Of a stretch of DNA of 24,954 nt, positions 13,561-24,954 are shown piece after piece. The notes beneath the pieces are model-generated. The model saw nothing but the letters and a program-made list of their open reading frames with translations, had not been told where the DNA came from and ran no database searches. Position numbers and translations under genes: made by a program. The stretch lies in the IMG/VR virus record IMGVR_UViG_2778261464_000013; one strand, given 5' to 3'. This stretch comes from a virus (Duplodnaviria; Heunggongvirae; Uroviricota; Caudoviricetes). Positions within the stretch are counted from its first letter, which is position 1; each line of letters opens with the position of its first letter.

Positions 13561-14712
13561 TCAGCTTATTTGACCTAATAATTCTTCCGCATATTTTTTA
13601 TCACTATCCATCCGTTGCTGAACAGCATCCCTAAGATGCTCTTTCAACTTATCAGGATAATTTTTACATGCATCAATCAATTTTGTTCGTAAAAGCTTAG
13701 CACCATTTACAATGGTGGCATAAGCTAAAGCATCAGCTAACTCCTTAACTTTCACATCATCAGTAATGATAGAAGGGATTGAAAAAACGTAATATTTCGC
13801 AACATAATTTTGCGTATACCAACTATCATATAACAATCCAATTAAAGCATCACCAAGATCACCTCTTCTTTTAAATTTGCTACCAAATGTATTACCCCAT
13901 GTTCCTATAGCTCCTTTGGTCGCATCAGAATAGAAATCCAAATATCCTTTTTTGCACTCTTCGATGATTATATTTTCCATTCTAATTAAAACATCATCAG
14001 GAAGATTTCTCCATGCGCTCGGCTTAATTATTCTAAATACATTAGCAAACTCAACATTATTGCTAGCCTTGCGTAACTCATCACCTAGCAACCGCATTGC
14101 GGCTTTTTCTTCCTCTCCTGAAAAGCGTTGGTTTATTGCTTTGAATATAGAATCAATTTCCTTGGTTGGCCTTTCATTAAAGCGAGAAATTAAACTTTGG
14201 AAAAAATCTAGTAGTTTTTTTTCTGGAATTTGTGATATTAAAGCTTCTGCATAATCAGAATTATTTACAAAGTGAACCTCATAAATTCTTTCAAGAATTG
14301 CTGTGTAATCGAACTCAGCAACATCTCTTTTTAAATACTTAATAAAAGTATCCAACATGATCAATATTCTCATGCAGGAATCTTCTGTATCAGGGAAATT
14401 GTCATGTGTCCTTGGATTTCTTATACACTGATAGTAGCCTCTTAATAGTGCTTCAAATCCGCGCTGTTCGTCCTGCTCTGATACAGATTGAAGACTATTA
14501 ATTTGGATTCTAGGTGATTGTCCACCCAAAACAGTACCAACAAGCTGAGCCCCATCCCCTTCACATTGCCCTTTTTCACGCAGCAAAGTTGTTAGATATT
14601 TGGTTCCTGCAAGTATTGCATCCGAAAATTGGTTGTTTTCCAGCCTATTACCAATCGCTTCAACTAATTCCGCATCGAAATTATTTGTATTAAAGTTATT
14701 TTTTACAAACAT
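13561..14712 (-). CDS. Hypothetical cargo protein with an N-terminal HEPN-like R-x4-H motif (RNPRTH); candidate abortive-infection/defence protein
   Basis: 383 aa from ATG 14712..14710 (the track starts one codon earlier at a GTG). GGGGAG Shine-Dalgarno upstream. About 35% GC by hand count on the last 60 nt. The RNPRTH codons lie at 14421..14404. Confidence 0.55.
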   Translation of the reverse strand: MFVKNNFNTNNFDAELVEAIGNRLENNQFSDAILAGTKYLTTLLREKGQCEGDGAQLVGTVLGGQSPRIQINSLQSVSEQDEQRGFEALLRGYYQCIRNPRTHDNFPDTEDSCMRILIMLDTFIKYLKRDVAEFDYTAILERIYEVHFVNNSDYAEALISQIPEKKLLDFFQSLISRFNERPTKEIDSIFKAINQRFSGEEEKAAMRLLGDELRKASNNVEFANVFRIIKPSAWRNLPDDVLIRMENIIIEECKKGYLDFYSDATKGAIGTWGNTFGSKFKRRGDLGDALIGLLYDSWYTQNYVAKYYVFSIPSIITDDVKVKELADALAYATIVNGAKLLRTKLIDACKNYPDKLKEHLRDAVQQRMDSDKKYAEELLGQIS

Positions 14713-14794
14713 CACACTCCCCTTTTTTTGAAAGGGTATTGTATTGAACCTTGTTAAGATTTCTCAGATAAGTATCACACTATCTCGAGTTGCG

Positions 14795-16140: not shown

Positions 16141-16374
16141 CTAATGTAACCAGCTGTCGTCTTCCCACACCTTCTGCATAATTTTCATCACTTGCTTCCT
16201 TTCTTCGTCCAGTTGCAGTCCGGTCAGTTCCACACCGTTAGAGCTACCTTTGCGGATACGAATTACCGTTTTGGGATACAGGGGGCGCAGATTGCGGTAA
16301 AGCTCGGATTCAAGGGCGTCCAGTGTAGACTGGCTAATCTTCTGCTCTTTATCGATCATTATTTCAATGCGCAT
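16141..16374 (-). CDS. DinI-family protein (DinI/Tum C-terminal domain-like)
   Basis: 77 aa from ATG 16374..16372 (MRIEIMIDK...LDALESEL...WEDDSW), which aligns well to E. coli DinI as I recall it. GAGGTGA Shine-Dalgarno. The track ORF extends upstream to 16446. Confidence 0.7.
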   Translation of the reverse strand: MRIEIMIDKEQKISQSTLDALESELYRNLRPLYPKTVIRIRKGSSNGVELTGLQLDEERKQVMKIMQKVWEDDSWLH

Positions 16375-16384
16375 AAAAGTCACC

Positions 16385-16573
16385 TCAGCTGATGACATCC
16401 ATTGAGCGGTTGTATTCGTGGGTTCTGATTTTTGCCATGAGTTCATCTGTTAGTTCAGAAACCCACTGCAAAGCCAGCCCCTTCTCTTCATCACTACACT
16501 CACTAGCCGCTACAAGCTTAAGAAAAAAATCAATGCGCTGGAGCTTCAAAGACTCCAAAAAATAGTCCTGCAT
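16385..16573 (-). CDS. Small hypothetical ORF (62 aa), first gene of the putative LexA-controlled operon; possible N-terminal part of a split Tum-like antirepressor
   Basis: Lies directly downstream of the LexA box. It overlaps the 5' extension of the DinI-like ORF in another reading frame. Confidence 0.35.
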   Translation of the reverse strand: MQDYFLESLKLQRIDFFLKLVAASECSDEEKGLALQWVSELTDELMAKIRTHEYNRSMDVIS

Positions 16574-16613
16574 CTTTCCTCCTATGACACCAAAGCAATA
16601 CTGTATACATAAC

Positions 16614-16633
16614 CACTGTTTATATTTACAGTA
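16614..16633 (-). promoter_or_regulatory. LexA (SOS) box caCTGTttatatttACAGta
   Basis: CTGT-N8-ACAG with an AT-rich spacer, against the consensus taCTGTatatatatACAGta. It lies about 40 nt upstream of the small ORF/DinI-like operon. An overlapping partial half-site (tactgtatacataaccac) is at 16599..16616. Confidence 0.7.
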
Positions 16634-20860: not shown

Positions 20861-21024
20861 TTGTTCCCCCGTTTATTCGTAGATAGTTCTGCCAGCAATT
20901 CATCTTGTGAACGGCACGGATGCCAGCGTTTACCATCCTCCCCCATGATCCAGCCGTGACCGTAGTGCATTGCCGGGCTTTGTTTTACCAGCAGCGATGC
21001 AAATGATGGTTCTTTCGTCAGCAT
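20824..21024 (-). CDS. Hypothetical small early protein (positional analogue of 186 fil/dhr-type genes)
   Basis: ATG at 21024..21022, preceded by GAGGTG. The track ORF extends to 21054 and would overlap the cII-like gene. Confidence 0.4.
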   Translation of the reverse strand: MLTKEPSFASLLVKQSPAMHYGHGWIMGEDGKRWHPCRSQDELLAELSTNKRGNKWLLKALRRLFH

Positions 21025-21031
21025 AAGCACC

Positions 21032-21541
21032 TCACAGCAAACCGAATGAAGCACCGAGGCCAGTCACGGTATCAACTGCACTCGCCATCGCAGGATTAGC
21101 CTGTAAACGGGCCTGCAATGAAACAGCGGCCAGCGCCATCAGTCGTGTTACAGAGTTAATGCTGCTGATAGCATCACGACGACCGGCACTGGTTTTTACA
21201 TCGCCAGAAACCGCACCTGCCGCGACACGCCCAATTTCAGCAGTTGCACTCATGACGTAATGCGGCAGTTTCTCTTTTGCCACCTCATTAATCGGTACGC
21301 ATGGCAGGCAGTGAATCTGAGCCAGAAAACCATCTACCAGCGTTGAATCTTCAGTCAGATCGGTAAGCAGCCAGATTTCTGGTGCGGTTAATAAATGAGG
21401 TTGAGCTGGGTTCAGCTTGTTCCGCAGAATCTGTACATTCATGCCTGCACGTTCTGCCAGTTGCACCAGGTTGTGGCGCAGTGCGAATGCACGACAGGCT
21501 TCATCAAAATGTGGATGTTTGGAAACTTGGTAATCAAACAT
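21032..21541 (-). CDS. cII: CII-like lysogeny-establishment regulator (186 CII-like)
   Basis: 169 aa from ATG 21541 ([20 protein letters not shown]...). Second gene of the operon diverging from the repressor gene. The family call relies on recalled similarity to 186 CII. Confidence 0.6.
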
Positions 21542-21573
21542 GGTCGACATCCCTGATATACCCCAAAATGGAA

Positions 21574-21795
21574 CTAGTTGAATACAACATTGCAATCAGT
21601 AAGTGCATCAACGGTAAGAGCAGCAAGGTTGATCATTACCTTTTCTCTTTTCTTGTCCTTCCGGAGACGATGCCGAGGGATGCGGCCATCAGCCAGCATA
21701 TCGTTGATTGTGTCGATTGAAAGACCAGTAAGTTCGCTATAACGCTCAATTGTGACATGTGGCGTATTCAGAGTTATTGAAATGTTAGGGGTCAT
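21574..21795 (-). CDS. apl: Apl/Cox-like small DNA-binding lytic-switch/excision regulator
   Basis: 73 aa from ATG 21795..21793 ([32 protein letters not shown]...), with AAGGAG upstream. First gene diverging from cI. Confidence 0.6.
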
Positions 21796-21838
21796 GATGC
21801 AACATCTCCTTTTAGCTTGTGGTGAGCTGGTTTTAATC

Positions 21839-21854
21839 GTGATAACAACATCAC
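21839..21854. promoter_or_regulatory. Inverted repeat GTGAT-aacaac-ATCAC in the cI/apl intergenic region; candidate operator
   Basis: Perfect 5-bp arms, flanked by a further imperfect gtttt...aaaac symmetry. It sits between the divergent repressor and apl starts. Confidence 0.4.
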
Positions 21855-21883
21855 AAAACGGAGAATAGGTTCGCATAAAGAAT

Positions 21884-22828
21884 ATGTCAACTCAAAAATT
21901 CACATTTCGCCATATTGATGACGATATGAAAGCCGTTGTCATACAAAATCGCGGTGGTCAGAAAGTAATCGAGCGGATACTCATGGCTTATGGCTTCAAG
22001 TCACGCCAAGCATTCTGTAACCATCTAGGTATTTCCCAAAGCACGATGGCTAACAGATATGCCCGCGATACATTTCCTGCAGATTGGGTTGTTATCTGCT
22101 CAATGGAAACTGGAGCATCAATTAAATGGCTAGCATTTGGTTCAGATGATGACGAACAAATGCCATCCCCTTCACCAGAACAGCATGTTGAAACACACTC
22201 CGAAGATGGTTCTTATCATGACGTTCACTATAAACAACCAAAGTTCGATAATGAAAACACCATTGATTATTCTCGGGGTGGCAAGGAAGCAATAGAGCGA
22301 ATTGTTAGGGCTTACGGTTATAAGACTCGCCAAGCCTTAGCTGATCACTTAGGTATTTCAAAAAGCACATTAGCCACAAGATATATGCGTGATGTTTTTC
22401 CTTCAGACTGGATAATTAAGTGCGCTCTCGAAACGGGTACTTCACTAATGTGGCTAACTACTGGTAAAGGCCCAAAGTTTGACGATGCAAGAAATGATGT
22501 AATTGCTATTACTCACAAAAAAATTACTGACGGGAATCTATTTGATTCAAATTTCTATATGCTTGATAAAGCATTACTACCAGACTCAATCCAATTACCA
22601 TTGATTGTTAGCACCGAAAAAAAAACATACCTATGTAATCAATCATTCGATGAAATTACAGATGGTAAATGGATTGTTGAAATAGAAGGGAAAGTGAGCA
22701 TTCGAACCCTAACTAGAATTCCTGTAGGAAGATTAAAAATTTCAGACAATGATTTATCATTTGAATGTAAAATTTCAGATATTGATGTTATTGCAAAATG
22801 CAAATTTATTCTGATAGAAGAATTATAA
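21884..22828 (+). CDS. cI: CI-type immunity repressor with a tandemly duplicated N-terminal DNA-binding domain
   Basis: 314 aa. Residues about 24-86 and about 132-194 are about 60% identical to each other (...IERI..AYG.K.RQA...HLGIS.ST.A.RY.RD.FP.DW...C..ETG.S..WL..G). A C-terminal domain follows. Confidence 0.7.
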   Translation: MSTQKFTFRHIDDDMKAVVIQNRGGQKVIERILMAYGFKSRQAFCNHLGISQSTMANRYARDTFPADWVVICSMETGASIKWLAFGSDDDEQMPSPSPEQHVETHSEDGSYHDVHYKQPKFDNENTIDYSRGGKEAIERIVRAYGYKTRQALADHLGISKSTLATRYMRDVFPSDWIIKCALETGTSLMWLTTGKGPKFDDARNDVIAITHKKITDGNLFDSNFYMLDKALLPDSIQLPLIVSTEKKTYLCNQSFDEITDGKWIVEIEGKVSIRTLTRIPVGRLKISDNDLSFECKISDIDVIAKCKFILIEEL

Positions 22829-22942
22829 AAGGATATTGGAATGAGTGGTTCTGATTATAAAAGTAATAGTTAAAAATATACGTCTAGAAGTATTAAATTA
22901 GGAGAATTAAAATCACATTTATCTAATGACACCTATAATACT

Positions 22943-23818
22943 TTGAAAAACCTATTGGATTCTCTAGAGTTTGATGAATTCGATATACTGCTTGATGCTT
23001 ACAGTCGAAATTTTTCTAAAAAAAAATATATGTATGAGCCCTTCATGCCTGACCATACATCATTGCAAAACAGTGAAGCAGATAAGTACCTTTTAAAAAT
23101 TGATGAGTTAGAACATAAACTACGCGAGTTTCAAAAAAGCCATAATTCGCAGTTAGACCAATTCAACAAGTTGCAGATAGAGTTATTAACTGCAATGGAC
23201 AGTAAAGAAAAACTAGCATCACAGCTAAAACTCCAACACGCCCAAAACAAAGAGTTAAAGCTTCAAAACCAAAAACTTTCAAGCAAAATTCAACAAAATA
23301 AAATTGACGAAAAAGTTCCTGAATATGTGCAGGGTGTCAAAGCAAAATTACATCAGGACGATAAAGATTTCACTGCAATGTCTTACAATTGGGCGATAGC
23401 CGGAATACTTTTATCATTATTATCTATAAGTGCCGCCTTTTTAACATTTTTCTATAAAATAGATATAAAAGACGCCACCCCCATTGAACTTTTTTATTAT
23501 TTCACTAGGGGCTTGCTTGGGGTTGCATTACTTTCTTGGCTTTCTTATTTTTGTTTAAACAATTCAAAAAAATACACACATGAAGCAATCATAAGAAAAG
23601 ACAGACAACACGCTCTAATGTTTGGTGAGGTCTTCTTACAAATTTATGGTTCAACTGCGACAAAACAAGATGCTATTGATGTGTTTAAAGATTGGAACAT
23701 GTCAGCTAATTCTGCATTCGCAGATAAAACGCAGCCACCTCCAAATTTATTTAACATTCTAGGCACACTTGCAGATAAAAAATCAGCAGCAAATGATGAC
23801 ATTGTTACCCAAAAGTGA
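22943..23818 (+). CDS. Hypothetical coiled-coil membrane protein (2 predicted TM helices) between cI and int; candidate superinfection-exclusion/defence protein
   Basis: 291-aa ORF, about 28% GC by hand count on 50 nt. The track start is a TTG with no obvious Shine-Dalgarno; the first in-frame ATG is at 23030, so the true start is uncertain. N-terminal Q/K/L-rich heptad-like region, then hydrophobic segments AIAGILLSLLSISAAFLTFF and LLGVALLSWLSYFCL. Confidence 0.5.
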   Translation: MKNLLDSLEFDEFDILLDAYSRNFSKKKYMYEPFMPDHTSLQNSEADKYLLKIDELEHKLREFQKSHNSQLDQFNKLQIELLTAMDSKEKLASQLKLQHAQNKELKLQNQKLSSKIQQNKIDEKVPEYVQGVKAKLHQDDKDFTAMSYNWAIAGILLSLLSISAAFLTFFYKIDIKDATPIELFYYFTRGLLGVALLSWLSYFCLNNSKKYTHEAIIRKDRQHALMFGEVFLQIYGSTATKQDAIDVFKDWNMSANSAFADKTQPPPNLFNILGTLADKKSAANDDIVTQK

Positions 23819-23898: not shown

Positions 23899-24954
23899 AT
23901 GGCAGTACGAAAACTCACCACAGGAAAATGGCTTTGCGAATGTTACCCCGCCGGACGTAGTGGGCGTCGTGTGCGTAAACAATTCGCCACCAAAGGCGAA
24001 GCACTGGCTTTTGAGCGTCACACGATGGAAGAAACCGAAGCAAAGCCCTGGCTGGGTGAATCAGTGGATCGTCGAACACTGAAAGACGTGGTTGAGCTAT
24101 GGTTCAAACTACATGGTAAATCTCTGACTGCTGGGCAGCATGTCTATGACAAATTGCTGTTGATGGTTGACGCTCTGGGCAATCCACTTGCAACCGATCT
24201 CACCTCTAAAATGTTTGCCCACTATCGAGATAAACGCCTTACTGGTGAAATCTACTTCAGTGAAAAATGGAAGAAAGGAGCAAGCCCAGTTACTGTTAAC
24301 CTGGAGCAAAGCCATCTAAGCAGCGTTTTCAGAGAACTTTCCCGCCTGGGTGAATGGACACTTCCAAACCCATTAGAGAAGATGCGCAAATTCACTATCG
24401 CAGAAAAGGAAATGGCATGGCTTACACATGAGCAGATTATCGAATTACTGTCTGACTGCAAACGTCAGAACCCAATTCTGGCACTGGTGGTAAAAATATG
24501 TCTAAGTACAGGCGCACGTTGGCGAGAAGCAATCAATCTTACCCGCTCACAGGTCACCAAGTACCGAATCACCTTTGTAAGAACGAAGGGGAAGAAAAAC
24601 AGAAGCATCCCTATCAGTAAAGAGCTTTATGAGGAGATAATGGCGCTCGATGGGTTCAATTTCTTCACAGACTGCTATTTTCAATTTTTATCCGTGATGG
24701 AAAAAACGTCTATCGTTCTCCCTCGCGGTCAACTGACACACGTTCTGCGCCATACGTTTGCGGCGCACTTCATGATGTCGGGTGGAAACATCTTGGCCTT
24801 ACAAAAAATTCTCGGACACCACGATATAAAAATGACTATGCGTTATGCGCATCTGGCACCGGATCATTTGGAAACGGCGCTCCGTTTCAATCCACTGGCA
24901 ACGTTACCAAATGGCGACAAAGTGGCGGCAGCGGTTGGCATTACCCCGCAATAA
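23899..24954 (+). CDS. int: Tyrosine recombinase (phage integrase, P2/186 Int family)
   Basis: 351 aa. C-terminal catalytic region with HVLRHTFA ... GHHDIKMTMRYAHL (His/Arg box and the tyrosine nucleophile). GGAGGG Shine-Dalgarno. Stop codon at 24952..24954. Confidence 0.9.
   Translation: MAVRKLTTGKWLCECYPAGRSGRRVRKQFATKGEALAFERHTMEETEAKPWLGESVDRRTLKDVVELWFKLHGKSLTAGQHVYDKLLLMVDALGNPLATDLTSKMFAHYRDKRLTGEIYFSEKWKKGASPVTVNLEQSHLSSVFRELSRLGEWTLPNPLEKMRKFTIAEKEMAWLTHEQIIELLSDCKRQNPILALVVKICLSTGARWREAINLTRSQVTKYRITFVRTKGKKNRSIPISKELYEEIMALDGFNFFTDCYFQFLSVMEKTSIVLPRGQLTHVLRHTFAAHFMMSGGNILALQKILGHHDIKMTMRYAHLAPDHLETALRFNPLATLPNGDKVAAAVGITPQ

Follow-up and report, generated by a model that had tools for sequence, protein, structure and literature searches.

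We investigated the immunity repressor gene cI in a 24,954-nucleotide stretch of Caudoviricetes DNA (IMG/VR record IMGVR_UViG_2778261464_000013; the whole stretch is called the window hereafter). The gene is a single uninterrupted open reading frame (ORF) and encodes a repressor of the phage 186 type, in which two helix-turn-helix heads, an outer one (N1) and an inner one (N2), precede the C-terminal oligomerisation domain. We consider it reasonably likely that the two-headed repressor arose by fusion, that N1 now runs the resident switch, and that N2 has been retained for sites of the older type or for cross-immunity. The gene and its parts are as follows.

21884-22828, + strand: cI, two-headed 186-type immunity repressor of 314 amino acids (aa) (ORF; PF07022 twice plus PF16452; best solved relative 2FJR)
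21884-21946, + strand: N-terminal extension, codons 1-21 (MSTQKFTFRH...), its DNA overlapping the lytic promoter pR (low synonymous divergence, dS; invariant island)
21947-22144, + strand: head N1 (aa 22-87), the outer helix-turn-helix domain, recognition helix ISQSTMANRYARD (Pfam; AlphaFold2; ratio of non-synonymous to synonymous divergence, dN/dS)
22145-22270, + strand: inter-head linker (aa 88-129), disordered, acidic and rich in Ser and Pro (AlphaFold2 predicted local distance difference test, pLDDT, below 50; dN/dS)
22271-22468, + strand: head N2 (aa 130-195), the inner helix-turn-helix domain in the canonical position, recognition helix ISKSTLATRYMRD (Pfam; AlphaFold2)
22508-22804, + strand: C-terminal oligomerisation domain (aa 209-307) (PF16452; Foldseek against 2FKD)

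Pfam matched PF07022 (Phage_CI_repr) twice, in two stretches (aa 22-87 and 130-195, E 1.8e-57), and PF16452 (Phage_CI_C) once (aa 209-307, E 5.1e-32). When the first 108 aa of CI were compared with the remainder by BLASTP, N1 (aa 22-86) and N2 (aa 130-194) aligned without gaps at 38 of 65 identical residues (58%; 82% positives; E 2e-31), a similarity far beyond chance. An earlier note on this DNA had already described two CI heads in the 314-aa protein, and both this and the position it gave them (21953-22465, that is, aa 24-194) were correct, as was its reference to 186 CI as a protein of about 190 aa with a single head (191-192 aa, one PF07022 domain). Its view of a 186-type CI with two intact heads before the oligomerisation domain therefore stands; its interpretation of the arrangement as a tandem duplication, an oddity and possibly a decoy or sensor does not, for the reasons given below. 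The suggestion that two heads bear on operator use and immunity specificity is plausible.

AlphaFold2 predicted two five-helix domains, N1 (helices 25-85, pLDDT ~85) and N2 (helices 132-193, pLDDT ~88), separated by a linker with pLDDT <50 at residues 88-125 and followed by a beta-rich C-terminal domain. In Foldseek, the predicted C-terminal domain matched 2FKD, the 14-mer of the 186 CI C-terminal domain, with a template-modelling (TM) score of 0.88 and a root-mean-square deviation of 2.2, and the best solved relative of the window CI was 186 CI itself (2FJR). The alignment of N2 and the C-terminal domain with 186 CI was colinear over the entire protein (residues 135-305 of the query, 9-180 of the chain); the window CI is therefore a complete 186-like CI with an extension, a head and a linker added in front. 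By both domain families, fold and context it belongs to the 186-type CI family, in which it is an architectural variant: the type member has one head per chain and ~190 aa, the window CI two heads and 314 aa. Its RefSeq twin, WP_047670133.1, is annotated as 'phage repressor protein CI'. We found no Pfam match of the window CI to Peptidase_S24, the C-terminal domain of self-cleaving repressors of the lambda CI/LexA type, at E up to 1, and the likeness of its beta domain to LexA was remote, at the fold level only (7-10% identity).

The two heads resembled different single-headed repressors. N1 was 86% identical to the head of P0084 (208 aa), encoded by a Salmonella enterica subsp. diarizonae prophage, which also shares the N-terminal extension (MSTxxxTxRH) with the window CI. 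N2 was 79% identical to the heads of P0029, P0031 and P0036 (199 aa), whose C-terminal domains were 70-80% identical to that of the window CI. Family-wide, mean identities were 73-75% among N1 heads, 77% among N2 heads and 59% between N1 and N2, and N2 heads were as similar to single-headed heads (72%) as the latter were to each other. Consistently, single-headed proteins branched both within the N1 clade and between N2 sequences in a neighbour-joining tree (66 columns, no bootstrap). The DNA was a mosaic of the same two kinds: 21851-22132 was 75% identical to an N1-type single-headed locus (L065), and 22286-22856 (571 nt) was 83% identical to a single-headed cI gene (L063; both by blastn). 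To the left of 21843 the DNA matched the apl/pL side of N2-type single-headed phages, and from ~22240 on the gene corresponded to an N2-type cI from codon 5. In fact, the N-terminus of N2-type single-headed CIs, MSTSKYPNEIKINPNQGGKAAIERL, recurred from about its fifth residue at the linker end in relatives (..KFPIEIKINPNQGGKAAIERL), and the linker end of the window CI reads ..KFDNENTIDYSRGGKEAIERI. The mosaic thus delimits one further feature.

21843-22237, + strand: putative acquired cassette, limits approximate, comprising the N1-type operators, the N-terminal extension, N1 and most of the linker (DNA mosaic)

Because each head is closer to single-headed heads than to the other head, and because of the DNA mosaic, we infer a fusion of two immunity types. 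On these comparisons, the ancestry of the gene is chimeric, by fusion rather than by recent duplication in place. The plain tandem duplication proposed earlier was tried as an explanation and is ruled out by the identity pattern (86% and 79% to single-headed repressors versus 58% between the heads) together with the mosaic.

Two observations on related genes touch the same question. P0094 (208 aa) is a single-headed CI with an N1 front joined to the last N2 helix (..ETGASLLWLTNWTGPKF..); its make-up suggests that the two heads of a P0034-like two-headed gene recombined with each other, which would mean that the architecture can also collapse. Furthermore, the lytic side (apl and cII; window 21000-21810) was 93-100% identical in DNA to that of three relatives (L061, L062 and L002), and the cI genes of these phages showed saturated synonymous divergence and unrelated C-terminal domains. 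Identity broke at ~21810, at the end of N1 (~22115) and at the end of N2 (~22416-22440). This amounts to mosaicism at the level of domains, with a lytic module that has swept recently.

Both heads are under purifying selection. We compared the window cI with a close relative from E. coli (L060) and with three diverged two-headed relatives (L061 and L062 from E. coli, and Klebsiella phage 4LV2017). Against the three diverged relatives, dN/dS was 0.004-0.026 in N1 (dS 0.27-1.6), 0.08-0.20 in N2 (dS >1) and 0.8-0.9 in the linker, so that N1 is the most constrained part of CI. The linker was not alignable among relatives except at its end. Among 36 two-headed proteins, residues S159, S161, T162, R166 and Y167 of N2 were invariant, and K160 was present in at least 90%. 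The N-terminal 21 codons behaved differently: dS was low (0.09-0.25, versus ~1 in N1), and non-synonymous divergence was relaxed. This extension contains an invariant island, TCACATTTCGCCAT, at 21900-21913, and among nine two-headed genes the third-position identity was 0.76-1.0 over codons 1-10, versus 0.3-0.45 in the heads. Such a pattern fits the overlap of codons 1-21 with the lytic promoter, which is listed here with its two operator-like boxes.

21862-21890, - strand: pR-like lytic promoter, -35 TTGACA (21890-21885) and -10 TATTCT (21867-21862), 10/12 to consensus, 17-nt spacer
21850-21859, + strand: N1-type operator-like box ATCACAAAAC, with TCAC at -33 from the cI ATG (comparison with single-headed phages)
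21899-21908, + strand: N1-type operator-like box TTCACATTTC, with TCAC at +16, in cI codons 6-9 (same comparison; inside the invariant island)

The -35 element overlaps the cI start codon (ATGTCAA is the reverse of TTGACAT), at a position equivalent to the annotated 186 pR. The ATGTCAAC start is conserved in both N1-type and N2-type single-headed phages, and the overlap was also seen in L016, L052, L063, L065 and L076; it is conserved across immunity types, and the shared 'MST' N-terminus is thus an imprint of the promoter. The boxes, on the other hand, differ between types. Those at -33 and +16 are the only two exact matches in the window to WTCACAWWWC, a pattern derived from these very sites. 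The -33 box recurs, identical and at an equal offset, in the N1-type single-headed locus L065, and N2-type single-headed phages have CCCAAATGGG there; in addition, the annotated FL site of 186 has ATTCACATT, found in the +16 box, as its left half. In alignment A3, the apl/pL side is common to two-headed phages and to N2-type single-headed phages of Klebsiella, Citrobacter and Escherichia as far as TAATCGTGA. Past this point the two-headed phages carry N1-type boxes, (A/T)TCACA..., at -33 and +16, and the N2-type phages have GTMCCCAAATGGGAAC and GTACCCAAATGAGATC at the corresponding places. Since N1-type boxes replace the N2-type ones, the resident pR of the two-headed phages appears to be of the N1 type. 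A joint change of operators and head is the classical picture of an immunity region. The N2-type core, CCCAATTG, is also the core of the 186 pR operator, TCTCCCAATTGAGAGA.

Several other elements of the switch region discriminated less. An inverted repeat, GTGA-N8-TCAC at 21839-21854, has conserved arms around a spacer that is variable in sequence and can differ by one base in length; repeats found across the region were otherwise many short pairs at chance level, and this one was kept solely for its conservation pattern. The site at the apl-cII junction, which corresponds to the FR position in 186, reads TAGTTC(C/G)ATTTTG(G/A)G in both N1-type and N2-type single-headed phages and was set aside as non-discriminating. 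We also rejected the idea that the late-activator promoter pB had adapted to the new head: the sequence there is TTCACAAT in 4LV2017 and TTCGTAAT in the N2-type phage KP12, but the near-identical twin of our region in E. coli Ec1120 has the KP12 version, and there was no systematic change. A search for repeats in the switch region of phage PSP3 gave no clear operator pattern.

If the cassette joined an N2-type cI at about codon 5, a box of the old type would be expected to have moved with the joint, and a candidate lies in the linker.

22243-22258, + strand: candidate intragenic (FL-like) CI site GTTCGATAATGAAAAC, codons K120-N125, a putative diverged relic of the promoter-distal operator of an N2-type ancestor

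In N2-type single-headed cI genes the homologous position, at codons 5-10, holds GTACCCAAATGAGATC; the ancestral +11 box would thus now lie in linker-coding DNA, ~350 bp from the ATG. Four relatives (L005, L006, L070 and L073) have GTTCCCAAT(T/C)GAGA here, and a fifth, L072, has GAACCCAATTGGGAAC, in which the peptide PIE has become PIG and the palindrome CCCAATTGGG is preserved. We built a weight matrix solely from the boxes of single-headed N2-type phages, and its top match in the whole locus fell in linker-coding DNA in six two-headed loci (the five above and L071), +299 to +362 from the ATG, where it scored 13.3-19.3 bits; the mean maximum of the shuffled controls was 12.8 bits, obtained with shuffles of a much longer window. 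In L002 the linker match was weak. An N2-like box is retained at this place in most two-headed genes, and in the window it has diverged. Among the nine two-headed genes, third-position identity peaked at 0.5-1.0 over codons 119-125, and amino-acid identity at the box was 0.28-0.42, except for a conserved Glu codon (124; 0.78). This contrast supports a conserved DNA-level element at an FL-analogous place in the linker region. In the sub-lineage of the window (the window itself, WIN, with L060, L061, L062 and 4LV2017) the box reads GTTCGATAATGAAA(A/T)C, with one synonymous T-to-C change in L060. We also tried P0112-type single-headed phages as a guide to this sub-lineage, their heads clustering with the window N2 in the tree, and discarded them, as their boxes are of the TTGCAAAA type, unlike the linker box of the window.

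These results can be combined into one scenario. A cassette of N1-type pR boxes and an N1-type head would have recombined into an N2-type phage, with the right-hand junction at about codon 5 of the resident cI, and the old head would have been kept in frame behind the new one. N1, which matches the boxes at the resident lytic promoter, would hold pR off and maintain lysogeny. The retention of N2 can be explained because such a swap changes only the pR operators, while a 186-type CI also acts at FL, FR and pB. N2 may accordingly serve old-type sites that were not swapped, such as the linker box, analogous in position to 186 FL, or other unswapped CI sites such as pB; it may also repress incoming N2-type relatives, giving one-way cross-immunity. 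Any one or more of these reasons could apply. N2-type relatives are real competitors, since they share apl/pL DNA with the two-headed phages, since one of them, Escherichia phage vB_EcoM-813R9, uses the attachment site of the twin prophage (rcdA/ybjJ), and since the pB region of another, KP12, is identical to that of the twin.

Several points weigh against this scenario or limit it. We infer which head binds what, and the assignment of boxes to heads comes solely from comparison with single-headed phages. Not every box is head-specific, because the GATC(G/A)CA element between the -10 and -35 of pR (21870-21879) was present in every immunity type examined (N1, N2 and ATRY); it is therefore not an immunity-specific operator but either a common CI half-site or a part of the promoter. 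Within the window itself, the N2 target is without direct support because both scans came out negative: the weight matrix gave nothing above shuffled controls, and the N2-type pattern GTWCCCAATTGRGA with up to 3 mismatches had one irrelevant match against 6 expected. The linker box of the window sub-lineage, conserved within the group, is off the N2 consensus, and the N2 recognition helix of the window is likewise a variant (STLATRYMRD versus STLANRYLRD); taken together, the helix and box changes are a single co-varying event and hence weak evidence. Single-headed phages with the ATRY helix use TTCAC-type boxes, for example GTTCAC-N5-TGAAATC, the arms of which resemble the linker box of the window; therefore N2 might also bind at pR. 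The ancestry tree was short and lacked bootstrap values, as stated above. For full-length CI, AlphaFold2 was confident about the domains and not about their arrangement (predicted TM score 0.42); therefore no statement can be made on head-head contacts. Finally, assembly of the two-headed CI into a wheel would be predicted only from the likeness of its C-terminal domain to a 14-mer-forming domain.

We weighed four other explanations. That the repeat is an assembly artefact or part of a decaying pseudogene has only the existence of the repeat in its favor and has practically no chance of being right. The N1- and N2-coding segments are 66% identical in DNA, and share no in-register run of more than 10 nt; seven complete E. 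coli genomes carry the same gene, Ec1120 at 99.9% identity and the other six at 92-98%; the ORF is intact in all seven and in sequenced phages; and both copies are under purifying selection. The assembly duplication that the earlier note wished to see checked is thus excluded, and this explanation can be called already refuted. The idea that one copy no longer binds operators and acts as a decoy or sensor, for example as bait for a Tum-type antirepressor or an anti-immunity protein, is very improbable. An SOS-controlled module beside the replication gene (LexA box, small ORF and DinI-like ORF) would suit it. However, no data point to a decoy: N1 hardly varies even where synonymous divergence is saturated, and it matches the resident boxes, N2 keeps its recognition-helix residues, and both head types serve as the sole head in single-headed repressors. 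The decoy role suggested earlier for the second copy is disfavoured on the same grounds.

The two remaining explanations concern N2 and seem to us unlikely to a similar degree. N1 and N2 of one chain or dimer could bind side by side at pR as a single-chain heterodimer, which would raise affinity and specificity at composite operators. The 42-aa flexible linker would permit adjacent binding, the GTGA-N8-TCAC repeat has conserved arms and a variable spacer, and the ATRY variant of the window N2 occurs in single-headed phages with TTCAC-like boxes that resemble those of N1. Conversely, the N1-type single-headed locus L065 has the same boxes at -33, -13 and +16 with N1 alone, a box of the N2 consensus is absent at pR, and the left repeat arm TCGTGA is also found in N2-type single-headed phages, so that it is not specific to two heads. 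Alternatively, N2 could be a spacer, non-binding in the window lineage and required by the N2-type C-terminal body to fold, dimerise or assemble into a wheel, with N1 doing all recognition. This would agree with the lack of a significant N2-type box in the window, with the divergence of the relic box and with the weaker constraint on N2 than on N1, but it accounts poorly for the recognition-helix residues named above (five invariant and K160 in at least 90% of the 36 two-headed proteins), for the strong constraint over the whole domain (dN/dS 0.08-0.2 at dS >1) and for a linker box conserved at synonymous sites both within the window sub-lineage and family-wide. We therefore retain fusion, with N1 at the resident switch and N2 kept for old-type sites or cross-immunity, as the explanation that is probably correct.

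Two-headed CIs turned out to be widespread. We propose to treat them as a group of their own, defined by two complete PF07022 heads in tandem with a linker of variable length between them and a single PF16452 domain behind. Homologue lists were taken as the best 120 matches per search, out of ~1,400 homologues in total. For the window CI, 46 of the 121 sequences classified (the best 120 matches and the query) had two heads, at 290-330 aa, and the other 75 were single-headed; the layout thus occurs in at least 46 related protein clusters. The hosts of the two-headed proteins were E. coli, Salmonella, Klebsiella, Enterobacter, Citrobacter, Kosakonia and Edwardsiella, and the CI of Klebsiella phage 4LV2017 (313 aa) is two-headed. 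The CI of PSP3, a classical phage that shares a genus with 186, has 286 aa and two PF07022 domains; among its best 120 homologues all but one were two-headed proteins of 267-290 aa (the exception had 208 aa and no match to the C-terminal domain), and one cluster of the PSP3 family is recorded on 737 contigs. The layout is accordingly not the oddity for which it was first taken, and the ground that the earlier note itself had named for refuting its reading, a two-domain layout as the norm among homologues, applies. An exhaustive search of 1.84 billion cluster representatives (50%-identity clusters) found 216 proteins matching one head, and 23 of the best 150 of these (~15%) had two near-complete heads. 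In a sample of one genome per species, most genes were single-headed and 2 of 54 loci were two-headed. Additionally, five long proteins, P0298 (834 aa), P0359 (575 aa), P0361 (343 aa), P0371 (1426 aa) and P0381 (471 aa), each contain four to ten matches to the helix-turn-helix core (residues ~14-52 of the query head); they appear to be arrays of CI-like helix-turn-helix motifs.

The outer position is not always filled by N1. A 186-like head occupies it in P0008, and still other heads do so in P0024, P0048 and P0050. The two heads of PSP3 CI are 46% identical to each other and 34-44% identical to N1 and N2 of the window CI, so the two-headed state of PSP3 arose independently. By this reckoning of head combinations, the two-headed state has arisen at least three times. 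We found no paper describing a two-headed 186-type CI architecture in the searchable literature, and Nilsson et al. 2011 (PMC3448106) say of PSP3 CI only that it has 'a longer C-terminal domain'. The layout is already common in databases and present in a classical phage, yet apparently uncharacterised.

We may ask, more generally, whether dual-specificity repressors arise repeatedly by capture of a foreign operator-plus-head cassette, with one-way immunity as the result and the stranded operator serving as a distal looping site of the wheel. We hold this wider proposal only tentatively, and it could well be wrong. If it is true, a new phage would escape the immunity of its ancestor through its foreign pR operators and would still exclude the ancestor by means of the inner head that it had kept. 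The capture of a cassette in front of an old head that stays in place would then be a testable route to new immunity specificities in temperate phages, and asymmetric cross-immunity would be predicted among prophages that compete for the same hosts and even for the same attachment site. Many prophages of clinical Klebsiella, Enterobacter, Salmonella and E. coli have the two-headed layout, as does PSP3. Relative to what databases already contain, which includes the architecture itself, the new elements would be its recurrent origin by cassette capture, the stranded intragenic operator and the predicted one-way immunity. Among the alternatives to the lambda switch, 186 CI is one of the most thoroughly studied, and its wheel of seven dimers wraps DNA and forms loops in it. 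A naturally occurring wheel that bore 28 heads of two specificities would raise the question of how wheel geometry and cooperativity cope with tethered outer heads.

The window is the early region of a 186-like (Peduoviridae) prophage. The + strand carries cI, a cargo ORF and int; the - strand carries, divergently, an apl/cox-like gene, cII, fil, a DUF5347 gene, dam and a replication gene. A twin of the whole region, 99.9% identical, lies beside rcdA/ybjJ in the complete genome of E. coli Ec1120. The two genes closest to the switch on the lytic side are given below.

21574-21795, - strand: apl/cox-like gene, 73 aa, first gene of the lytic operon and divergent partner of cI (phrog_575 Cox-like excisionase and repressor, E 1e-31; RefSeq coding sequence in the twin)
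21032-21541, - strand: cII gene, 169 aa (PF06892 Phage_CP76, E 4e-42; RefSeq coding sequence in the twin)

The slot between cI and int (window 22841-23818, + strand) encodes a coiled-coil protein of 291/325 aa for which membrane helices are predicted (phrog_2628, function unknown) and PADLOC gave no match. The same slot holds GmrSD and HEPN genes in E. coli 504239, an OLD-like TOPRIM/AAA protein in a Klebsiella michiganensis prophage and a large ATPase in KP12 (slot coordinates in relatives: L061, 3337-4942; L072, 1662-2336; L076, 5118-6794); it looks like a hotspot for defence genes or morons. A 384-aa ORF between the portal gene and the SOS module (13561-14715, - strand) has a Hypoth_Ymh domain (PF09509) and matches the PADLOC models PD-Lambda-3_B (E 2e-14) and Aga_HEPN, which makes it a candidate gene for anti-phage defence; the equivalent position in 4LV2017 is taken by a reverse transcriptase. 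In the SOS module, a perfect LexA box, CTGTAAATATAAACAG (CTGT-N8-ACAG; 16631-16616, - strand), lies upstream of a 62-aa ORF (16573-16385, phrog_698), which is followed by a 77-aa DinI-like ORF (16374-16141, - strand) that matches only the C-terminal half of the Tum-length phrog_189. A Tum-like antirepressor module thus seems to be split into two genes at 16141-16631. The int ORF encodes 351 aa in the window (23899-24954) and 343 aa in the 99.9% identical twin (L003, 6400-7431), which may reflect a change of stop codon or an effect of the window end.

Among known systems, a comparison outside phages is offered by Mce3R of Mycobacterium tuberculosis, which, according to PMC11667970, has a double TetR motif in one chain and forms one pseudo-dimer. 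The likeness is one of principle only, namely two homologous helix-turn-helix modules per chain, which allow non-palindromic or dual targets. Mce3R belongs to an unrelated fold family and is not a phage immunity repressor, whereas the heads of the window CI are held apart by a disordered linker and sit on a multimerising body. PSP3 CI (NP_958086, 286 aa) is closer, with two PF07022 heads and one PF16452 domain, and its family is very common in prophages of Klebsiella, Enterobacter, Salmonella and E. coli, but its identity to the query is only ~30% and its linker, at ~25 aa, is shorter. The N1-type single-headed phages, represented by P0084, share with the window the N-terminal extension, the pR core and TCAC boxes at -33, -13 and +16; in contrast, P0084 has its own distinct C-terminal domain joined directly to the head, a different Apl (78 aa) and no second head. 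The N2-type single-headed phages (P0029; Klebsiella phage KP12; Escherichia phage vB_EcoM-813R9) share the apl/pL flank and, in P0029, a C-terminal domain ~80% identical to that of the window CI, but they have one head, and their pR boxes are of the CCCAAATGGG type instead of the TCACA type of the two-headed phages.

Phage 186 itself resembles the window in its PF07022 head and PF16452 C-terminal domain, in its context (int-cI divergent from apl-cII-fil, with pR beside the cI start), and in its annotated FL, FR and pB sites, to which the TTCAC-type boxes of the window are similar. According to the 186 record annotation and PMC3675496, three pR operators begin at the cI start, FL lies inside cI and FR on the other side, and CI uses these distal sites ~300 bp from pR and also represses pB. 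By the title of Shearwin et al. 2002, as cited in PMC3675496, the single helix-turn-helix of 186 CI is reported to recognise two distinct sequence classes. The differences are that 186 has one head per chain, whereas the window CI has two heads of different lineages, and that 186 pR lies in a 130-bp non-coding gap, whereas in the window it is overlapped by the first 21 codons of cI. Furthermore, in contrast to the single 186 head with its two sequence classes, the two box classes of the two-headed phages would each be tied to a head type of its own.

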